Assembly: GCA_963667785.2 (NCBI GenBank)
Contig: CAXXMU010000005.1
Span: forward strand, 64,001-128,000
Direction: 5' to 3'
From: Alphaproteobacteria bacterium
GTDB taxonomy: Bacteria > Pseudomonadota > Alphaproteobacteria > UBA828
Length of the DNA stretch: 64,000 nt
The notes under the pieces: model-generated
What the model saw: only the letters and a program-made list of their open reading frames with translations
The model's database searches: none
Told to the model about the DNA's origin: nothing
Shown here: piece after piece, positions 3,023 to 40,226 of the stretch
Layout: every line of letters begins with the position of its first letter
Position numbering within the stretch: the first letter of the stretch is position 1
Translations under genes and position numbers: made by a program

Positions 3023-3865
3023 TCAGGCCTTGGATTCCTTGCGCGGCGCCGCCGGGTTCGCCGTGTGCTCCGGTCCCGGGAAGCGGCGCGCGCGCACGTC
3101 GGCGGCGTAGTCCCGCGCGGCCTGCGCGAGCCCGTCGCCGAGCGCGGCGTAGCGCTTGACGAAGCGGGGCGTGAACGCGCCGGCAAGGCCGACGATGTCC
3201 TCGGTGACGAGGATCTGGCCGTCGCAGGCCGGCGAGGCGCCGATGCCGATGGTGGGCACCGCGAGCTCGTGGGTGAGCGTGCGCGAGAGCAACTCGACCG
3301 TGTTCTCGATGACGATGCCGAAGGCGCCGGCGGCCTCGACCGCGCGGGCGTCGGCGAGGATGCGGCGCGCGCTCTCCTCGGTCCTGCCCTGCACCCGGAA
3401 CCCGCCCGCGGCGTTGACCGACTGCGGCATCAGCCCGACATGGCCGAGCACGGGCACGCCGCGCGCCGTCAGGAAGCCGATCGTCTCGGCCATCTCCTGC
3501 CCGCCCTCGAGCTTGACCGCGGTCGAGCCGGTCTCCGCCATGACGCGGGCGGCCGTCTCGAAGGCCTGGGCGGGCGAGCCCTCGTAGGAGCCGAAGGGCA
3601 GATCGACGACGATGCAGGCCCGCCTGGTGGCGCGAACCACCGCGCGGCCGTGGCCGATCATCGTCTCCACCGTGACGCCGACCGTGGACTCCATGCCGTA
3701 GAGCACCATGCCGAGCGAATCGCCCACGAGAATGAGGTCGCAGGCCTCGTCGACGGCCCGCGCCACCGGCGCGGTGTAGGCGGTCAGGCAGACGATGGGC
3801 GCGCCTCCCTTGGCGCGGGCGATGTCCCGGACGGTCAGTCGCCGGACTGCGCTGTGGTCTGGCAT
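3023..3865 (-). CDS. panB: 3-methyl-2-oxobutanoate hydroxymethyltransferase
   Basis: [37 protein letters not shown]. Confidence 0.97.
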
Positions 3866-3923
3866 CTCACTGCCTCCCTGGCGAGGCCTGCGGGTCTCCC
3901 GCGGCCACCCCGGCGCGCTATGT

Positions 3924-3990
3924 TGCGCCGCAGCAATTACTCATTGTAACAGGCTCAACGCGTTTGTGAACGGATTGTTGCAGTGCAGCA
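3924..3990. promoter_or_regulatory. Two putative PhaR (AniA)-type boxes upstream of panBC
   Basis: TGCGCCGCAGCA (3924-3935) and TGCAGTGCAGCA (3979-3990) both fit TGCRNYGCASMA, in an AT-richer intergenic stretch. Confidence 0.55.
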
Positions 3991-4014
3991 TAACCCTGCC
4001 ACGGTCTCGATATC

Positions 4015-4332
4015 TCAATTGAGGCTGCGCACGGCGCGGTAGCGGCCGTTCTCGAAGCCGCCGAAGAGCTGCGCCAGCAGCCGGTGGCGAATGGGGCCGC
4101 CGTCGGCATCGGGCTCCAGATGGCGCTCCGCAACGTAGGTCGTGTGCGCCGCGTCGTGGACGAGGACGTGATACCAGGGCCGGTCCTTCGGCGGGCGCGA
4201 GCGCGCGACCTGCTCGTACCACTGCTCGCTGCCCTGGAAGCAGGGGTCGACGTCGAAGACCACCCCGCGGTAGCCGAAGCGGCGGTGGTGAACCACCTGG
4301 CCGACCTCGAACTCTGCGGCGCTGACGGTCAC
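4015..4332 (-). CDS. hspQ: Heat shock protein HspQ / YccV-like
   Basis: FEVGQVVHHRRFGYRGVVFDVDP, PWYHVLV, TYVAERHL. Confidence 0.9.
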   Translation of the reverse strand: MTVSAAEFEVGQVVHHRRFGYRGVVFDVDPCFQGSEQWYEQVARSRPPKDRPWYHVLVHDAAHTTYVAERHLEPDADGGPIRHRLLAQLFGGFENGRYRAVRSLN

Positions 4333-4380
4333 GGCAGGCCTCCTGCGCCCGTGGCGCCCCCCTGCGAGCGGGTGCCGGCA

Positions 4381-5445
4381 CTATAATGCGCGCCGGCCGC
4401 CGCGGACAATCGGGCCTGCCGCCGCCGGCGGCTCCGGGGAGGCCCCTTGCGCATCGCCCGCCCGCCGCCGCGCCCCGCCGCGGGCGAGCAGGTTCTTCCC
4501 CTCGGCGAGCTGCCAGGCAAGCAGGCCGGGCACGCCGATCACCAGCTCGCGCACCCGCTTCACCAGCGACAGCGCGAGCGCCACCTCCGGCCCGAGGCCC
4601 ACCATGCTGCCGAGCAGGACCATCACGCCCTCCTGCACGCCGAGCGCGCCGGGCACGAAGAAGGCGGCGGTGCGGGTCGCCAGGATGAGGCTCTCGATCA
4701 GCAGCGCATCGGCGATGCTGATCTCGTAGCCCATGAAGTAGAGCGCGGCGTAGACCTCGGCCGCGCCGAGGGTCCAGGCGGCGAGCTGGCCGGCCGCGTT
4801 CCCCGCCAGCAGCCAGCGGTGCCGGTAGAGATCGAGGACCGCCTCGTCGAGCGCCTGGGCGCCGCCGATGGCGTTGTCCCAGGCCCGCCCTCGGGCGAAG
4901 CGCGCCGCCAGGCCCATGATCCGGCCGAAGAGCCCGCGCTGCTGGAAGACGCAGAGCAGGATGACGACCACGAAGCCGCCCGCGACGCAGTAGCCGATGG
5001 CCCGCGCGATCTCGCTCTCGCCGTGGTGGGCCATCAGCAGGCCGATGCCGACCAGCGTGAAGAAGAGCAGGGTGATCGTGCTCAGCGTGAGATCGACCAC
5101 GACGCTCGCGCCCGCGACCCGGCCCGGCACGCCGCGCATGACCATGAGCCGCGAGCGCACCACCGCGCCGCCGACCTGGAACGCCGGCACCAGGGTGTTC
5201 ACCGATTCGCCGATCCAGCGCGCCCAGAGCGCCGTCAGCACCGACGGCCGGTGCTCCTTCAGGAAGAGCAGGCGCCAGACGTAGCCGTCGAGCATGATCG
5301 GCACGAGGCGCACCAGGACGACCACGGCGATGCCCCAGCTCACGGCGGCCACGGCAGCGGCCACGTCGCCGGCCCCCTGGAAGACCACGAGGCCGATGAC
5401 CAGCGCGATGCCGACGATGAGTGCGACGTAGCCCCAGCGCCTCAC
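4381..5445 (-). CDS. Lysylphosphatidylglycerol synthase TM-domain / HpnL-like membrane protein
   Basis: Multi-TM; WIGESVNTLVP, FFVPGALGVQEG, LSLVKRVREL; GTG start at 5445 chosen. Confidence 0.75.
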   Translation of the reverse strand: MRRWGYVALIVGIALVIGLVVFQGAGDVAAAVAAVSWGIAVVVLVRLVPIMLDGYVWRLLFLKEHRPSVLTALWARWIGESVNTLVPAFQVGGAVVRSRLMVMRGVPGRVAGASVVVDLTLSTITLLFFTLVGIGLLMAHHGESEIARAIGYCVAGGFVVVILLCVFQQRGLFGRIMGLAARFARGRAWDNAIGGAQALDEAVLDLYRHRWLLAGNAAGQLAAWTLGAAEVYAALYFMGYEISIADALLIESLILATRTAAFFVPGALGVQEGVMVLLGSMVGLGPEVALALSLVKRVRELVIGVPGLLAWQLAEGKNLLARGGARRRAGDAQGASPEPPAAAGPIVRGGRRAL

Positions 5446-5577
5446 CGGCAATCCCCTTCCCGCTCCTGCGCGCGAAAGACCCCCGGCGCCACCGGGGGGC
5501 GATCCATTATACCGGCCCGCCCGCCGAACGAGGCGACCCATTGTCAGGCTTGTCGGGCCGGCCGGGCGGCACCGGCG

Positions 5578-6801
5578 TCACGGGCCGAGCAGCTCGGCCG
5601 GCGGGCGCCGGAAGGTCATGCGCCCGCGCTTGAAGCCGTAGAGCGGCTGGGCGATGGCGGCCACCGCCTCCGCCGCGTCAGCCGCATCGAGAACCACGAG
5701 GTCGGCCGCCTTGCCTCGGGCGATGCCGTAATCGTCGAGGCCGAGGATGCGGGCGGAGCGGCGCGTGATCATCTCGAAGCAGTCGAGCATCTCCGAGCGC
5801 GCGCCCACGTGGCCGACATTGGCGTAGAGGTTCGCCATCCGCACCAGCGAGCAGTCGCCGAAGGGCGTGAACGGGTTGAGGATGTTGTTGGAGGACAGCG
5901 AGCAGTTGACGCCGTGGCCGAGCATCCGGTGCGCGGGCGTGACGCCGCGCCGCACGTTGGCCTCGTCGCCGCGCCCCATGAGGAAGAGGTCGGTCGCCGG
6001 CAGCACCGTGCAGGCGACGCCGGCATCCGCCATGCGGTCCGCGACCCGCGCCAGGTGCTCCGGGTCTGCGGCCGAGAGCTTGGTGACGTGGCCGACCGTG
6101 ACCCGCCCACCCCAGCCGAAACGCTCGGCGAGCCGGCAGACCTGATCGAGGTCGAGCGCATCCGCGCTCTCGCCGAAGTCGAGATGCATGTCGATATCGA
6201 CGTCGAAGCGCCGGGCGAGCGCGAAGACGCGGTCGATCTGTCCGGCGGGATCGCTGTCGGTGTAGGGGGCGGCGCCGACGACGCGGGCGCCGCGCTCCAG
6301 CGCGTCCACCATGAGCTCGTCGGTGCCCGGGTTGTTGAGCAGCCCTTCCTGCGGGAAGACGCAGATCTCCAGGTCGATCGCCCAGCGATAGGCGTCGATC
6401 AGCGGCAGCACGCCCTCGAAGCCGCGCATGCCGATGCCGGGATCGACCTCCAGATGGGTGCGCATGTGGGTGGTGCCCTGGGCGATGCAGGCATCGAGCA
6501 CGCGGCGTGCGCGCGCGTTCACGTCGGCGGCGGTGAACTCCCGCTTCACCCGTGCCACCTCGTCGATCGCCTCGGCGAGATCGCCGGTCTCCGCGCGGCA
6601 GCGGTCCAGGATGCAGGCCTTGTCGAGGTGGATGTGGGTCTCGATGAAGCCGGGCGCCACCAGGCGGCCATCGAGATCGAGCGCCGGCGCGTCCGCCTCG
6701 ATCTCCGGCGCGATCTCCGCGATGCGGCCGTCCGCGATGCCGATGTCGAGCCTGGTGCCGTCGCCGCCGGCGACGACCGCGCCGCGCAGGATCAGGTCCA
6801 C
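5578..6801 (-). CDS. Metal-dependent amidohydrolase, CodA/AtzC-like fold, substrate unknown
   Basis: PGFIETHIHLDKA, GTTHMRTH, FPQEG, HLDF, GHVTKL, SSNNILNPFTPFG. Confidence 0.85.
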   Translation of the reverse strand: MDLILRGAVVAGGDGTRLDIGIADGRIAEIAPEIEADAPALDLDGRLVAPGFIETHIHLDKACILDRCRAETGDLAEAIDEVARVKREFTAADVNARARRVLDACIAQGTTHMRTHLEVDPGIGMRGFEGVLPLIDAYRWAIDLEICVFPQEGLLNNPGTDELMVDALERGARVVGAAPYTDSDPAGQIDRVFALARRFDVDIDMHLDFGESADALDLDQVCRLAERFGWGGRVTVGHVTKLSAADPEHLARVADRMADAGVACTVLPATDLFLMGRGDEANVRRGVTPAHRMLGHGVNCSLSSNNILNPFTPFGDCSLVRMANLYANVGHVGARSEMLDCFEMITRRSARILGLDDYGIARGKAADLVVLDAADAAEAVAAIAQPLYGFKRGRMTFRRPPAELLGP

Positions 6802-6840: not shown

Positions 6841-8553
6841 TCAGCGCAGCATGTAGCGCTGGGCGAGGGGCAGAGTCTCGGCCGGCTCGCAGGTCGCGAG
6901 CTCGCCGTCCACCGTCACCTCGAAGGTCTCGGGATCGACCGCCACCTCGGGGCAGGCGCCGTTGTGCAGCATGTGGCCCTTGGCGAGCTTGCGCGTGCCC
7001 TGCACCGGCGCGGTGCGGCTCTCCAGCCCGAGCCTGCCGGCGATGTCGGCGTCGGCGGCCGCCTGCGAGACGAAGCTCAGGCTCAGCGCCTCCTTGGCCC
7101 GGCCGAAGGCGCCCCACTGGGGGCGCATGAGCAGCGGCTCGCAGGTCATCAGCGAGGCGGCGCTGTCGCCCATCGCCGACCACACGATGAAGCCGCCCTT
7201 GATGACCAGCTCCGGCTTGATGCCGAAGAAGGCCGGACGCCAGAGCACCACGTCGGCGAGCTTGCCCGCCTCGAGGCTGCCGACGTGGCGGTCGATGCCG
7301 AAGGTGCGGGCGGCGTTGATGGTGTATTTCGCGATGTAGCGCTTGATGCGCTCGTTGTCGCCCTTCGCGCTCCGCTCCGAGGCGAGCCGGCCGCGCTGGC
7401 CGCGCATCTTCGACGCGAGCTGCCAGGTGCGGCAGATCACCTCGTTGATCCGCCCCATGCCCTGGCTGTCCGAGCCCAGCATCGAGATCGCGCCGATGTC
7501 GTGCAGCACGTCTTCCGCCGCGATGGTCTGCGCGCGGATCCTGCTCTCGGCGAAGGCCACGTCCTCCGGCACCGCCGGGTTCAGGTGGTGGCAGACCATG
7601 ATCATGTCGAGATGCTCGTCGAAGGTGTTGCGCGTGTAAGGGTTGGTGGGGTTGGTCGAGGACGGCAGGCAGTTGGGCTCGCCGGTGATGCGGATGATGT
7701 CGGGCGCATGCCCGCCGCCCGCCCCTTCGGCGTGGTACATGTGGATGGTGCGGCCCCTGATGGCGGCCAGCGTCTCCTCCAGGAAGCCGCTCTCGTTCAG
7801 CGTGTCGGTATGGAGCTGGACCTGGAAGTCCATCTCGTCGGCGACGCCGAGGCAGCAGTCGATCGCCGCCGGCATGGCGCCCCAGTCCTCGTGGATCTTG
7901 AGCCCCATGCAGCCGCCGGCGATCTGATCGACGAGCGAGTGGGGCCGGGCCGAGTTGCCGCGCCCGAGGAAGCCGAAGTTGATCGGCCAGGCCTCGGCCG
8001 CCTGCAGCATCTTGCCCACGTTCCAGGCGCCGCCGGAATCGATGCCGACGGTGATCGGCCCGAGCGAGCCGCCCAGCATCGTCGTGATGCCGCTCGAGAT
8101 CGCGTGCTCGCAGAGCTGGGCGCTGTCGAAATGGACGTGGACGTCGATGCCGCCCGGCGTCGCGATCAGCCCCTCCGCATCGCGCACCGTGGTCGCGGCC
8201 CCGCACAGCAGGTCGGGGTCCACGCCGTCCATGACCGCCGGGTTGCCGGCCTTGCCGACGCCGGCGATGAGGCCCTCCTTGATGCCGATGTCGCCCTTGA
8301 CGATGCCGAGCACCGGATCGATGACGACGGCGTTGGAGACCAGCATGTCGAGCGAGCCGCCGGCGCTGTCGAGCCCGGCGACGAGGCCGATGCCGTCGCG
8401 CAGCGTCTTGCCGCCGCCGTGCAGGCACTCCTCCCCCGGCACGCCGTGGTCGTGCTCGATCTCGGCCAAGAGCGCGCTGTCGCCGAGGCGCACGCAGTCG
8501 CCGGTCGTGGGCCCGTAGAGCGCCGCATACTCCGCCCTGCTCATCCGTGCCAT
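6841..8553 (-). CDS. ureC: Urease alpha subunit (divergent)
   Basis: [72 protein letters not shown]. Confidence 0.93.
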
Positions 8554-8556
8554 CGC

Positions 8557-9252
8557 TCAGGCCCCCTTGAAGCCGCGCGACCGGGCGCGGGCCAGCGCTT
8601 CCTGCTTCACGGCGTCGGACCGCCGCGAGCCCTGGGTGAGGTCGTTGAGCCCCACCATCTCGCCGCTGCCGCCGAACTCGACCAGCGTCACCTCTTTCGT
8701 CTCCCCCGGCGCGAAGCGCACCGCCGTGCCGGCGGGGATGTCGAGGCGCATGCCGAAGGCGGCGGCGCGGTCGAAATCGAGGTGCCGGTTGACCTCGAAG
8801 AAGTGGTAGTGGCTGCCGATCTGCACCGGCCGGTCGCCGGTGTTGGTGACGGCGACCGTGGCGGTGGCCCGGCCGGCGTTGATCTCGATCTCGCCCTCGG
8901 CCGGGATGATCTCGCCGGGGCGCACGCTCTCGTCCCGCGCCTTCGCGCCGGGGCGGATCGGCTCATGCACCGTGACCAGCTTGGTGCCGTCGGGGAAGGT
9001 GCCCTCCACCTGCAGCACCGGCATCATCTCCGCCACCCCCGGCATCACGTCGTCGGTGTTGAGGACGGTGGCGCCGTGCTCGATCAGCTCCGCCACGGAG
9101 CGCCCGTCGCGCGCGCCTTCCAGGATCTCGTCGCTGATCAGCGCCACCGCCTCGGGGTGGTTGAGCGCGCACCCCCGTGCGCGGCGCCGGCGCGCGAGCT
9201 CGGCGGCGGTAAAGATGGTGAGCCGCTCCGTTTCCGTCGGTGTCAGCAGCAT
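8557..9252 (-). CDS. ureAB: Fused urease gamma/beta subunit
   Basis: Gamma part LNHPEAVA...[14 protein letters not shown] fused to beta part PGEII...[19 protein letters not shown]...[12 protein letters not shown]. Confidence 0.93.
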
Positions 9253-9267
9253 CGTGAGCCACCCTGG

Positions 9268-9960
9268 TCAGTTGCTGAAGAGTCGGACCTCCGCACTCTC
9301 GTGGCGGGCCGCGGCGACATCGGCCAGCGGCGCGTAGGCGCGCGCCTCGTGGACGCCGGGCGCGGGCTCCGCCAGCAGCGCCGCCATCCGCGGTCTGAGC
9401 GCTCGCAGCATGATCTGCCCGTCGAGGTGGCCGATCAAGCCGAGCCTGAGGCCCGCGCCCAGGATGGTGGCGCAGAGGCCGTGCAGGCTGACCGCCTCGG
9501 CCCGGGCGAGGCCGAGGCCGGCGCCCTTCAGCACCACCCCCTGCACCACGGCGAGATGGCCGGGCGCGGTGCCGGCGCGGATGCGCGCGCGATAGTCGGC
9601 GGCGCCGGGCGTCTTCATGCGCGCGTGCACGCCGAGCAGCGCAGCCCCCCCCTTGCGCGAGCCCTCGCGGAGCTCCTGCGGCAGGGTCATCGCCTCCTGC
9701 AGGTGGTCGATCTCGGCGACCGCCGGCCAATCCGGGGCAGCCCGCCAGGCGGCGGCGAGGAAGGCGCGCTCGGCGCTCGCCCAGCGCTCGGACACCTGGT
9801 CGGCGAGGAAGGCGTCGAGACCGGCGGCATCGGTCACGATGCCGTCGGCGTGCAGCGTCTCCAGCCCAAGCGAGAACGACACCGCGCCGCTCGGGAAGAA
9901 GCTGTCGCCGAACTGCAGCGCCGCGAGATCGGCGCCCGCGCCGTCTTCCGCCTCGCTCAT
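9268..9960 (-). CDS. ureF: Urease accessory protein UreF
   Basis: LQFGDSFFPSGAVSFSLGLE N-terminus; HE...RLFSN C-terminus. Confidence 0.88.
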   Translation of the reverse strand: MSEAEDGAGADLAALQFGDSFFPSGAVSFSLGLETLHADGIVTDAAGLDAFLADQVSERWASAERAFLAAAWRAAPDWPAVAEIDHLQEAMTLPQELREGSRKGGAALLGVHARMKTPGAADYRARIRAGTAPGHLAVVQGVVLKGAGLGLARAEAVSLHGLCATILGAGLRLGLIGHLDGQIMLRALRPRMAALLAEPAPGVHEARAYAPLADVAAARHESAEVRLFSN

Positions 9961-10115
9961 TGCGTTCTCCCGGCCGGGCCAGCGCCTTTCCGGCGCCCGG
10001 CCTGACCCGGCAGGAACCTTACCTGCCGCTCACGCCCGGACGAAAGCCCGTTGTCACGGGCAGCCGCCGCCGTCATGGTCCCTCGGCAAGAACGAGGCCG
10101 GAACGGGAGACAAGC

Positions 10116-11570
10116 ATGGCCGGGGCCGAGCGATACGACGTTCTCTTTGCGGGCGGCACGGTGATCGACGGCACCGGCGCGCCCCGAGCGCGAGCCGATG
10201 TCGCGGTTGCGGGCGATCGCATCGCCGCCGTGGGCCGGCTGGCGGGCGCAGAGGCCGCGCGCACGATCGACGCGAGCGGGCGCATCGTCTCGCCCGGCTT
10301 CATCGACGCCCACACCCACGACGACAACCTGCTGCTGGTCGACCCGGCCATGACGCCGAAGACGAGCCAGGGCGTCACCACGGTGATCGCCGGCAATTGC
10401 GGGGTGAGCCTCGCGCCGCTCGCGCCGGGACGCCCGGTGCCGCCGCCGCTCGACCTTCTGGGCCCACCCGCCGACTTCCGCTATCCGCGCTTCGCCGACT
10501 ACGTGGCGGCGCTGGACGCCACACCGCCGGCCGCCAACGCGGGCCTCCTGGTCGGCCACTCGGCGCTCCGCCTCGACACAATGGACGACGTGGACCGCCC
10601 GGCCACGGCGGGCGAGATCGACGCCATGCGGGAGCGGCTGGCCGACGGCATGGAGGCCGGCGCGCTCGGCTTCAGCACCGGGCTCATCTACGGCCCCAAC
10701 AAGGCGGCCACGACGGACGAGGTGGCGGCTGTCGCCGAGGTAGCCGGCGCCGCCGGCGGCCTCTACGTCACCCACATGCGGAACGAGCACGACGGCGTCG
10801 AGGAGGCGATGGAGGAGGCCTTCGAGATCGGCCGCCGCGCCGGCGCGGGCGTGGTCATCTCGCACCATAAGTGCGCGGGCAGAGGCAACTTCGGACGGAG
10901 CCGCGACACCCTCGCCCGGATCGAGAAGGCGCGGGAGAGCCAGGCGATCGGCCTCGACGTCTACCCCTACACCGCAGGCTCCACCGTGCTGCTGGCGGAG
11001 ATGGTCGAGAAGGCGGAGCGGGTGATTGTCACCTGGTCCGAGCCGCACCCGGAGCACGCGGGCCGCGACCTCGCCGAGGTCGCCGCCGCGCTCGGCCTCG
11101 ACCGGCTCGCGGCCGTCGACGCGCTGAGCCCGGCGGGCGGCATCTACTTCATGATGGACGAGGCGGACGTGCGCCGCATCATCGCCTATCCGCACAGCAT
11201 GATCGGCTCGGACGGCCTGCCCCACGACCGCCACCCCCACCCCAGGCTCTGGGGCACCTTCCCCCGCGTGCTCGGCCACTACGCGCGCGAGCTCGGCCTG
11301 CTGACGCTCGAGGATGCGGTGCGCCGCATGACCGGGCTTCCCGCCGCGCAGTTCGGGCTTACGGGCCGGGGCGAGGTGCGCGCCGGCGCCTATGCCGATC
11401 TCGTGATATTCGATGCCGAAACGATCGCGGACCGGGCGACCTTCGACGATCCCACCCGGCCCGCCGCCGGCATCGACGTCGTCATGGTGAACGGCGCCGT
11501 CGTGCGCGAAGGCGGGCGGGCCACCGGAAAGCGGCCAGGCCGCGCGCTGCGTCGCCGGCCGCCGGCCTGA
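10116..11570 (+). CDS. N-acyl-D-amino-acid deacylase (D-aminoacylase family)
   Basis: PGFIDAHTHDD, GNCGVS, HMRNE, SHHK, DVYPY, GSDG, HPRLWGTFPRVLG. Confidence 0.9.
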   Translation: MAGAERYDVLFAGGTVIDGTGAPRARADVAVAGDRIAAVGRLAGAEAARTIDASGRIVSPGFIDAHTHDDNLLLVDPAMTPKTSQGVTTVIAGNCGVSLAPLAPGRPVPPPLDLLGPPADFRYPRFADYVAALDATPPAANAGLLVGHSALRLDTMDDVDRPATAGEIDAMRERLADGMEAGALGFSTGLIYGPNKAATTDEVAAVAEVAGAAGGLYVTHMRNEHDGVEEAMEEAFEIGRRAGAGVVISHHKCAGRGNFGRSRDTLARIEKARESQAIGLDVYPYTAGSTVLLAEMVEKAERVIVTWSEPHPEHAGRDLAEVAAALGLDRLAAVDALSPAGGIYFMMDEADVRRIIAYPHSMIGSDGLPHDRHPHPRLWGTFPRVLGHYARELGLLTLEDAVRRMTGLPAAQFGLTGRGEVRAGAYADLVIFDAETIADRATFDDPTRPAAGIDVVMVNGAVVREGGRATGKRPGRALRRRPPA

Positions 11571-31420: not shown

Positions 31421-31623
31421 CGACGATTGACTATCGCCGGCGCGCATCCGGGCGGGCGCCCGAGAGGCGCCGGCCCCGCCGCTGCGCCGCGCTCAGGCGT
31501 GGGCGCGCACGGGCGCGAGCAGCCGCACCCGCACGGCGTGCGCCGCTGCAGCGCGTGAACGATTAACCTACGGCCGGCCGCGGCGCAGCAGCCGCGGCCC
31601 GGCCCGAGAGTCCGAGGGGTAAG

Positions 31624-35937
<4,314 letters not shown>

Positions 35938-35963
35938 CGCCGCACCGGCACGGCCACCGGTAA

Positions 35964-40226
<4,263 letters not shown>

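Follow-up and report, generated by a model that had tools for sequence, protein, structure and literature searches.

Urease genes are taken to mark urea use in surveys of soils, oceans, and host-associated communities; automatic annotation gives the name "urease subunit alpha" to an entire clade of UreC proteins whose gamma and beta partner subunits are fused (the "type-2" clade). At the very place where the amino group of urea is held, this clade departs from all ureases that have been assayed or solved, and the question is whether its members are ureases at all. We addressed it with a ureC gene of this clade at positions 6841–8553 (minus strand; ATG start; 570 amino acids) of a 64,000-nucleotide stretch of contig CAXXMU010000005.1 from an alphaproteobacterial genome (GCA_963667785.2). 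We refer to the whole stretch as the window and to the gene product as window UreC. Our answer, given with moderate confidence, is that window UreC is a genuine nickel urease, and the main competing answer is a shift to another small amide or urea derivative.

Catalytic center and substrate pocket

Window UreC scored 864.6 bits against NF009686 (cut-off 354) and 807.5 bits against TIGR01792 (cut-off 680); canonical UreC proteins across a 250-genome sample gave family scores of 927–1002. Over its full length it aligned with UreC of Klebsiella aerogenes (E = 1e-207), and the six di-nickel ligands of that enzyme (H134, H136, carbamylated K217, H246, H272, and D360 in K. aerogenes numbering), which are invariant throughout a 55-sequence UreC alignment, are identical in window UreC. 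The catalytic and flap residues H219, D221, C319, H320, and R336 are kept as well. The corresponding motifs are HVH (H134/H136), GLKIHEDWG (K217, H219, D221), LHTD (H246), a 13-residue segment carrying H272, MVCHHL (C319/H320), AFAESRIR (R336), and GSDSQ (D360). The alignment thus bears out the initial annotation of this locus, made from the sequence alone, in which the metal ligands and flap residues were described as intact. The AlphaFold2 (AF2) model had a mean predicted local distance difference test score (pLDDT) of 88.9 and a predicted template modeling score (pTM) of 0.93, and it adopted the urease fold of a triosephosphate isomerase (TIM) barrel with an N-terminal beta domain. When it was compared with the Protein Data Bank (PDB) using Foldseek, the top 39 matches were all ureases (template modeling [TM] score 0.94–0.96, root mean square deviation ∼1.9 Å). 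Existing records that name this protein label it urease subunit alpha, and "urease subunit alpha" was the only name carried by members of the clusters of 10 representatives, none of which was a characterized member.

The pocket is a different matter. In urea-bound Sporosarcina pasteurii urease, the urea nitrogen that is bound to Ni(2) is held in place by two backbone carbonyls, those of Ala170 and Ala366 (residues 167 and 363 in Klebsiella), according to the available part of PMC7433671, which agrees with the contacts named in the initial annotation. The canonical segments that hold urea, the 19-residue GGGTGP..ATTCTPG loop and SDSQAMGR, are both absent from window UreC. Around the position of Ala167, an aligned stretch of 20 residues is replaced by 17, a net deletion of three that leaves a pocket loop of 16 residues as against the canonical 19 (8026–8073, minus strand). 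In a second segment, HIHWICPQQ becomes HVHFDSAQL (8113–8139, minus strand), in which the nickel ligands His139 and His141 are followed by DSAQL in place of ICPQQ. The third change lies in the 11-residue stretch SDSQAMGRVGE, in which SDSQAMGR reads SDSQGMGR (7450–7473, minus strand), so that the nickel-ligand Asp is kept and Ala363 is Gly. Because the urea contacts come from backbone carbonyls (PMC7433671, as far as its available text goes), these changes do not imply lost function. In the AF2 model, the changed loop (residues 161–170) was the least confident block of the core (pLDDT 67).

To place these changes in context, one genome per species was scanned, yielding 511 UreC relatives, and the best 80 of them, with their surroundings, are the 80 loci referred to below. 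They share 76–96% identity with window UreC. We then compared window UreC and these 80 relatives with 21 canonical UreC proteins at those alignment columns where conservation reached 90% or more in each group. There were 288 such columns, 248 the same in the two groups and 40 different; 15 of the 40 clade-fixed differences fell within three pocket segments (residues 140–147, 163–174, and 365) that comprise ∼21 of the 570 residues, and six more were clustered at residues 465–480. The three changed segments recur nearly letter for letter in all 80 loci (a 12-residue stretch followed by C or S and GG; HVHFDS..; and SDSQGMGR), so the pocket changes are not due to chance. The PDB contains 32 distinct urease sequences, and none has the short loop: each aligns to the canonical loop stretch without a change in length. 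These comparisons support the existence of a clade, separate from the canonical ureases, in which the wall of the substrate pocket appears to have been rebuilt, and they uphold both the three segment changes and the remodeled pocket proposed at the outset.

Distribution and phylogeny of the type-2 clade

The 80 loci come from the Pseudomonas syringae group, from Stutzerimonas and Acidithiobacillus ferrianus, and from a large number of uncultured Alpha-, Beta-, and Gammaproteobacteria. Type-2 genes are common among Pseudomonas associated with plants, Burkholderiales of fresh water, and Proteobacteria of marine and sponge habitats. That UreC remains 76–96% identical across classes indicates strong constraint. 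DNA nearly identical to the window locus is present in sponge metagenome runs. Contigs from three RNA libraries (two studies) matched ureC and ure(AB) over part of their length at 90–95% identity, a weak hint that relatives are transcribed, given that DNA carry-over is possible.

A tree of 72 UreC rows was built with no fixed root; it included 15 of the loci, 14 distant representatives, and 42 UreC drawn from the source genome, from its relatives, and from a phylum sample. All UreC proteins with the long, 19-residue loop formed a single clade (24 rows, support 100). Window UreC fell in a clade of 25 rows (support 98) together with the Pseudomonas, Stutzerimonas, and Acidithiobacillus loci. Every lineage outside the canonical clade had a loop of 15–16 residues, or shorter still in two distant rows, and a single change in loop length would therefore explain the tree as inferred from these sequences; the position of the root decides between a gain of residues in the canonical clade and a loss in the others. 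The expectation that sequences with the GGSLGP-type loop would form a clade of their own is thus supported. The accompanying expectation that this clade would co-occur with the HLDF amidohydrolase encoded next to ureC in the window is not, as the two genes are neighbors in only 7 of the 80 loci.

The cluster type itself has been known since 2008 and is routinely annotated as urease; its pocket is unlike that of all characterized ureases. The gene order ureEF(AB)CGD was reported in Bradyrhizobium sp. BTAi1 (Bbta_1962/4442) and P. syringae B728a (Psyr_2197) in PMC2492869 (cf. PMC5489568), the available part of which also lists ure(AB)C pairs standing alone in Streptomyces (SCO5526 and SAV2715). 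The locus therefore cannot be called a wholly undescribed unit, as had been suggested. In the same part of PMC2492869, no activity is reported for type-2 ureases and the pocket changes are not mentioned. The locus tags of known type-2 members occurred in the literature only in that paper and in one unrelated transcriptome paper.

Operon structure and its break-up in the source genus

The usual type-2 gene order is ureE-ureF-ure(AB)-ureC-ureG-ureD. Upstream of ureC, ure(AB) was found in 79 of the 80 loci, ureF in 71, and ureE in 60. Downstream, ureG and ureD followed in 65 loci and an amidohydrolase gene in 7; neither followed in 3, and in the remaining 5 the end of the locus was too near ureC to judge. 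Genes for a Urt-type five-gene ABC transporter were near 41 of the 80 loci, and those that were scanned exceeded the cut-offs for urea transporters. Ten genomes were checked for other urease genes: the type-2 gene was the only ureC in three, and a canonical urease was also present in seven.

The window departs from this order, as only ureF-ure(AB)-ureC is present. The window is ∼70% G+C, and coding frames were recognized by the G+C content of third codon positions. On the minus strand, ureF, ure(AB), ureC, a gene for a cytosine-deaminase-like amidohydrolase, and an HpnL/flippase-like gene form a compact row with successive intergenic gaps of 15, 3, 39, and 36 nt. The fused gamma/beta subunit gene, ure(AB) (8557–9252, minus strand; 231 amino acids), lies 3 nt before ureC, and its product scored 367.1 bits against NF009671 (cut-off 243) and matched Pfam Urease_gamma and Urease_beta. 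The only nickel-insertion helper gene remaining in the operon is ureF (9268–9960, minus strand; 230 amino acids; 110.3 bits against Pfam UreF), whose product shares 37–57% identity with the UreF proteins of intact clusters and 77–86% with its nearest relatives.

The missing helper genes are elsewhere in the source genome (4.09 Mb in 14 contigs), which encodes three UreC proteins, all with short loops and none canonical. Besides the window, the ureC sites are locus A, an operon with separate subunit genes in the order ureABCEFGD (C1:220738–226075, L008), and locus B, with the order ure(AB)C-ureD (C1:524160–527628, L009). Locus A UreC is long-branched, with the motifs HPH, GGGNAPD, and CHN in its sequence; locus B UreC is 64% identical to window UreC and belongs to its sister group in the tree. 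A second ureE-ureG pair stands isolated on contig C6 (L010 7552–8666). Of the genes in the source genome, ureE and ureG of this pair, ureD of locus B, and ureF of the window match the helpers of intact type-2 clusters best, so the helper set is complete though scattered, and the gamma/beta partners and all of UreD, UreE, UreF, and UreG are encoded in the genome. All three UreC proteins were present in 16 of 20 genomes of the same genus, and among 41 relatives a canonical UreC was found in one distant genome only. Two genomes of the same family (G021 and G022, loci L102 and L104) retain the intact ureEF(AB)CGD order. In the source genus, the operon has been broken up, with ureE/ureG and ureD now at other sites. 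The source genome encodes two enzymes of the arginase family, a family that typically releases urea. Neither a canonical UreC nor a urea carboxylase above the cut-off was found in it.

Urea or another substrate

The reading that we favor is that window UreC and the adjacent fused Ure(AB) would assemble a usual urease, in which urea would be hydrolyzed at a di-nickel center bridged by the carbamylated lysine, with the help of the His/Cys flap. The Ni(2)-side wall, from which the carbonyls of Ala167 and Ala363 reach the urea amino group in canonical enzymes, would be formed by the shorter loop in the type-2 lineage. In the source genus, UreF would act from its original place, UreE and UreG from another contig, and UreD from beside the second fused-type urease, locus B, which probably shares the scattered helpers with the window urease; the place of ureG-ureD has passed to a conserved, apparently catalytically crippled cytosine-deaminase-like protein. 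Family scores, intact catalytic residues, the predicted fold, the adjacent Ure(AB) and UreF, and the full nickel-insertion set in related loci all argue for a nickel urease, as do the Urt transporters near half of the loci, the genomes in which the type-2 gene is the only ureC, and the two arginase-family genes of the source genome.

Several observations do not sit well with urea as the substrate. More than a third of the clade-fixed differences lie in the pocket segments, two new Asp residues (143 and 172 of window UreC) among them; the loop that bears one of the urea-holding carbonyls is three residues shorter, and the residue that bears the other is Gly. The aliphatic amidase gene amiE lies between the transporter and urease genes in 23 of the 80 loci, and in a tree of UrtA the type-2 proteins were sister to UrtA linked to formamidase or AmiE, apart from UrtA of canonical ureases. 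Urt-type transporters linked to amidases have been suspected of carrying amides other than urea (PMC3098086; similarly PMC13209695). The seven genomes with both urease types include one of 2.0 Mb. In two of the seven (G298 and G296; loci L143 and L144), a canonical urtABCDE-ureABC unit stands directly beside an AmiC-like gene and urtABCDE-amiE-ureEF(AB)CGD, which makes a double urea/amide island, with counterparts in the two transporter sets only 38–50% identical to each other. The keeping of two urease systems together, each with its own transporter in these two genomes, argues against simple redundancy. The source genome has no UrtA above the cut-off, and a search of the main texts of the literature brought up neither an assay nor a structure nor a mutant of any type-2 member.

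It is possible, though we think it unlikely, that type-2 ureases are not spare ureases but nickel amidohydrolases of the same fold, metal center, and chemistry, whose substrate preference has moved to a different small amide or urea derivative with the rebuilding of the Ni(2)-side wall. Tentative candidates for the substrate of such a sister activity to urease would be formamide, acetamide, N-methylurea, hydroxyurea, or a similar compound, imported by an amide-type Urt-like transporter. In its favor are the fixed differences focused on the pocket and kept in all 80 loci, the co-resident canonical ureases, and the relationships of UrtA and AmiE just described. Amidase-signature enzymes add to these: one above the PRK07235 cut-off adjoins the clusters of L055, L059, and L138, and a relative with 76% identity adjoins that of L049. 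An AmiC-like binding protein is encoded beside five clusters (L138, L143, L144, L150, and L034). Urease itself reportedly turns over formamide, acetamide, and N-methylurea slowly (Dixon and colleagues, 1980), which likewise counts for a shifted substrate. Such a shift, if true, would explain the retention of the type-2 genes beside a canonical urease in small genomes, the amide-type transporter, and the amidase and AmiC-like neighbors. However, the first-shell residues are unchanged except at the two carbonyl-bearing positions, where backbone contacts need not be lost, and the short loop occurs in every non-canonical lineage, including the ureABCEFGD-type paralog of the source genome. Three of the 10 genomes have the type-2 UreC alone, and a transporter common to urea and amides would equally explain the amidase neighbors. 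Because a shared transporter would account for those neighbors and backbone contacts can survive a change of sequence, we retain a nickel urease as the best reading.

The ureEF(AB)CGD clusters of BTAi1 and B728a share with the window the fused Ure(AB), the same well-supported clade, and the same three pocket segments, and the P. syringae-group copies among the loci are 76–78% identical to window UreC. The window differs from them in having only ureF-ure(AB)-ureC, with ureE/ureG and ureD at two other genome sites, and in having an amidohydrolase gene after ureC and neither a Urt transporter nor an amidase nearby. The solved canonical ureases (K. aerogenes, S. pasteurii, Helicobacter pylori, jack bean, Yersinia enterocolitica, and Ureaplasma parvum) are 51–57% identical to window UreC, with TM scores of 0.94–0.96 and identical metal ligands, carbamylated Lys, flap Cys-His, and Arg336, but differ from it in the 19-residue loop, ICPQQ, and Ala363, and in the fixed changes at residues 465–480. 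The orphan ure(AB)C pairs of Streptomyces (as placed in the available part of PMC2492869) and locus B resemble the window in the fused gamma/beta subunit and in having few or no helper genes nearby; locus B and window UreC both have the short loop, though they are only 64% identical.

A second urease in the same genome has a precedent in UreA2B2 of Helicobacter mustelae, which uses iron, needs no helper genes, and exists alongside a canonical urease. UreA2B2 has a loop of canonical length, in contrast to the short loop and complete UreEFGD set of the type-2 clade, and the complete helper set points to nickel. If type-2 enzymes prove to have normal urea kinetics, the two Ala-bearing segments would be less essential than the textbook picture holds. 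If they prefer another substrate, the number of urea users is overestimated in ureC-based surveys, and there is a new nickel-dependent activity still to be described.

Amidohydrolases beside the urease genes

The initial annotation went further and proposed that the urease paralog, the HLDF amidohydrolase, and perhaps a divergent D-aminoacylase-like enzyme form a catabolic unit acting on a substituted urea or related nitrogen compound. The amidohydrolase gene (5578–6801, minus strand; 407 amino acids; cytosine-deaminase/AtzC-like) begins 39 nt after ureC, in the place held by ureG-ureD in other clusters, and is followed after 36 nt by the gene for an HpnL/flippase-like membrane protein (4381–5541, minus strand; 302.6 bits against TIGR03476). 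A search for a terminator-like site between ureC and the genes downstream, as far as the HpnL/flippase-like gene, found none. The D-aminoacylase-like amidohydrolase gene (Amidohydro_3; 10113–11570, plus strand) diverges from the operon 152 nt from the ureF start.

The amidohydrolase directly follows ureC in 18 of the 20 genomes of the same genus, and this closeness, together with the divergent neighbor, is what speaks for such a pathway. The pocket changes predate the association, however, as they are present in the 73 loci without the amidohydrolase. Relatives in the same family with intact ureEF(AB)CGD clusters have the amidohydrolase gene elsewhere or not at all; the homolog in G021 adjoins a family-5 solute-binding ABC transporter and not a urease, and homologs of 65% and 55% identity occur in G032 and G038, which have no type-2 UreC. 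Outside the genus, the homologs had no recurring partner gene that would name their function. The D-aminoacylase-like gene is a divergent neighbor only in the source lineage (the same number of loci, 7 of 80, and L102), and its part in a pathway is likewise not supported.

The hydrolytic step is itself doubtful. When compared with Escherichia coli CodA, the amidohydrolase keeps HxH, Gln156, His214, and His246, but the catalytic Glu217 is Phe and the metal-binding Asp313/Asp314 pair is Asn-Asn, and its best NCBIfam score (266.7) is below the cut-off of 408. Since the altered residues are the same in all 121 aligned homologs (67–92% identity, from many metagenomes), the gene is not a decaying one but belongs to a conserved family whose active site is either rebuilt or dead; judged by these residues, the protein is unlikely to be a normal hydrolase. 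We conclude that its association with ureC is recent and local, the result of a gene shuffle and not of a new pathway, and consider the proposed catabolic unit quite improbable. Least probable of all is that the gene is a silent or regulatory paralog left from duplication, as might be supposed from three ureC genes in a 4.1-Mb genome and the loss of helper genes from the operon, because its ligands and catalytic residues are intact, its sequence is constrained across classes, UreF is retained and conserved, and the RNA-library contigs cover parts of ureC and ure(AB), although the last point is weak since DNA can occur in such libraries.

Other observations

Some related loci have further genes or RNA motifs next to the type-2 cluster. 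In A. ferrianus (L055), two open reading frames (ORFs) of the allantoate-amidohydrolase/carbamoylase family (3824–4456 and 4469–5113) lie just upstream of the cluster; one corresponds to the N-terminal and the other to the C-terminal half of the family, and the pair may represent a frameshift or a split gene. In a Chloroflexota locus (L086, 549–4955), genes for the beta and alpha subunits of a sarcosine-oxidase-family enzyme precede the cluster, an arrangement that would fit urea from creatine breakdown. An Rfam scan of nine related loci found no riboswitch linked to type-2 genes. A Guanidine-I riboswitch (L143 19781–19891, plus strand, 79.5 bits) is located at the far end of its locus, on the outer side of the canonical urease/transporter unit, and faces away; the gene under its control lies outside the stretch that was analyzed. 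Matches to 5_ureB_sRNA lie within the ureC coding sequence and were set aside because they look like coding conservation. Just 5' of the type-2 urtA in P. syringae (L080 215–298) and Stutzerimonas stutzeri (L076 225–309) lies the livK RNA motif of Rfam (77 bits against a gathering score of 65).

Elsewhere in the window, two very long ORFs with a strong coding signal (31567–40226, plus strand) are, from their size and position, probably rpoB and rpoC.

A search of representatives at 50% identity placed canonical and short-loop UreC in the same few clusters, a level at which the type-2 clade is not resolved, and returned many more distant urease-like lineages. Eleven of these proteins (P0134, P0157, P0164, P0166, P0168, P0175, P0182, P0189, P0197, P0246, and P0248) are full-length and urease-alpha-like at 36–47% identity, yet at least one metal ligand (HxH, the carbamylated Lys, His246, His272, or Asp360) is replaced in each, and they are apparent pseudo-ureases. 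Nine others (P0126, P0129, P0131, P0136, P0139, P0149, P0151, P0176, and P0187) represent deep urease-like lineages of 39–54% identity with complete metal ligands, in which the pocket loops are shorter still or different and the flaps are altered (e.g., AVHALRG for VCHHL). One deep urease-like cluster contains a Nanopelagicales record.

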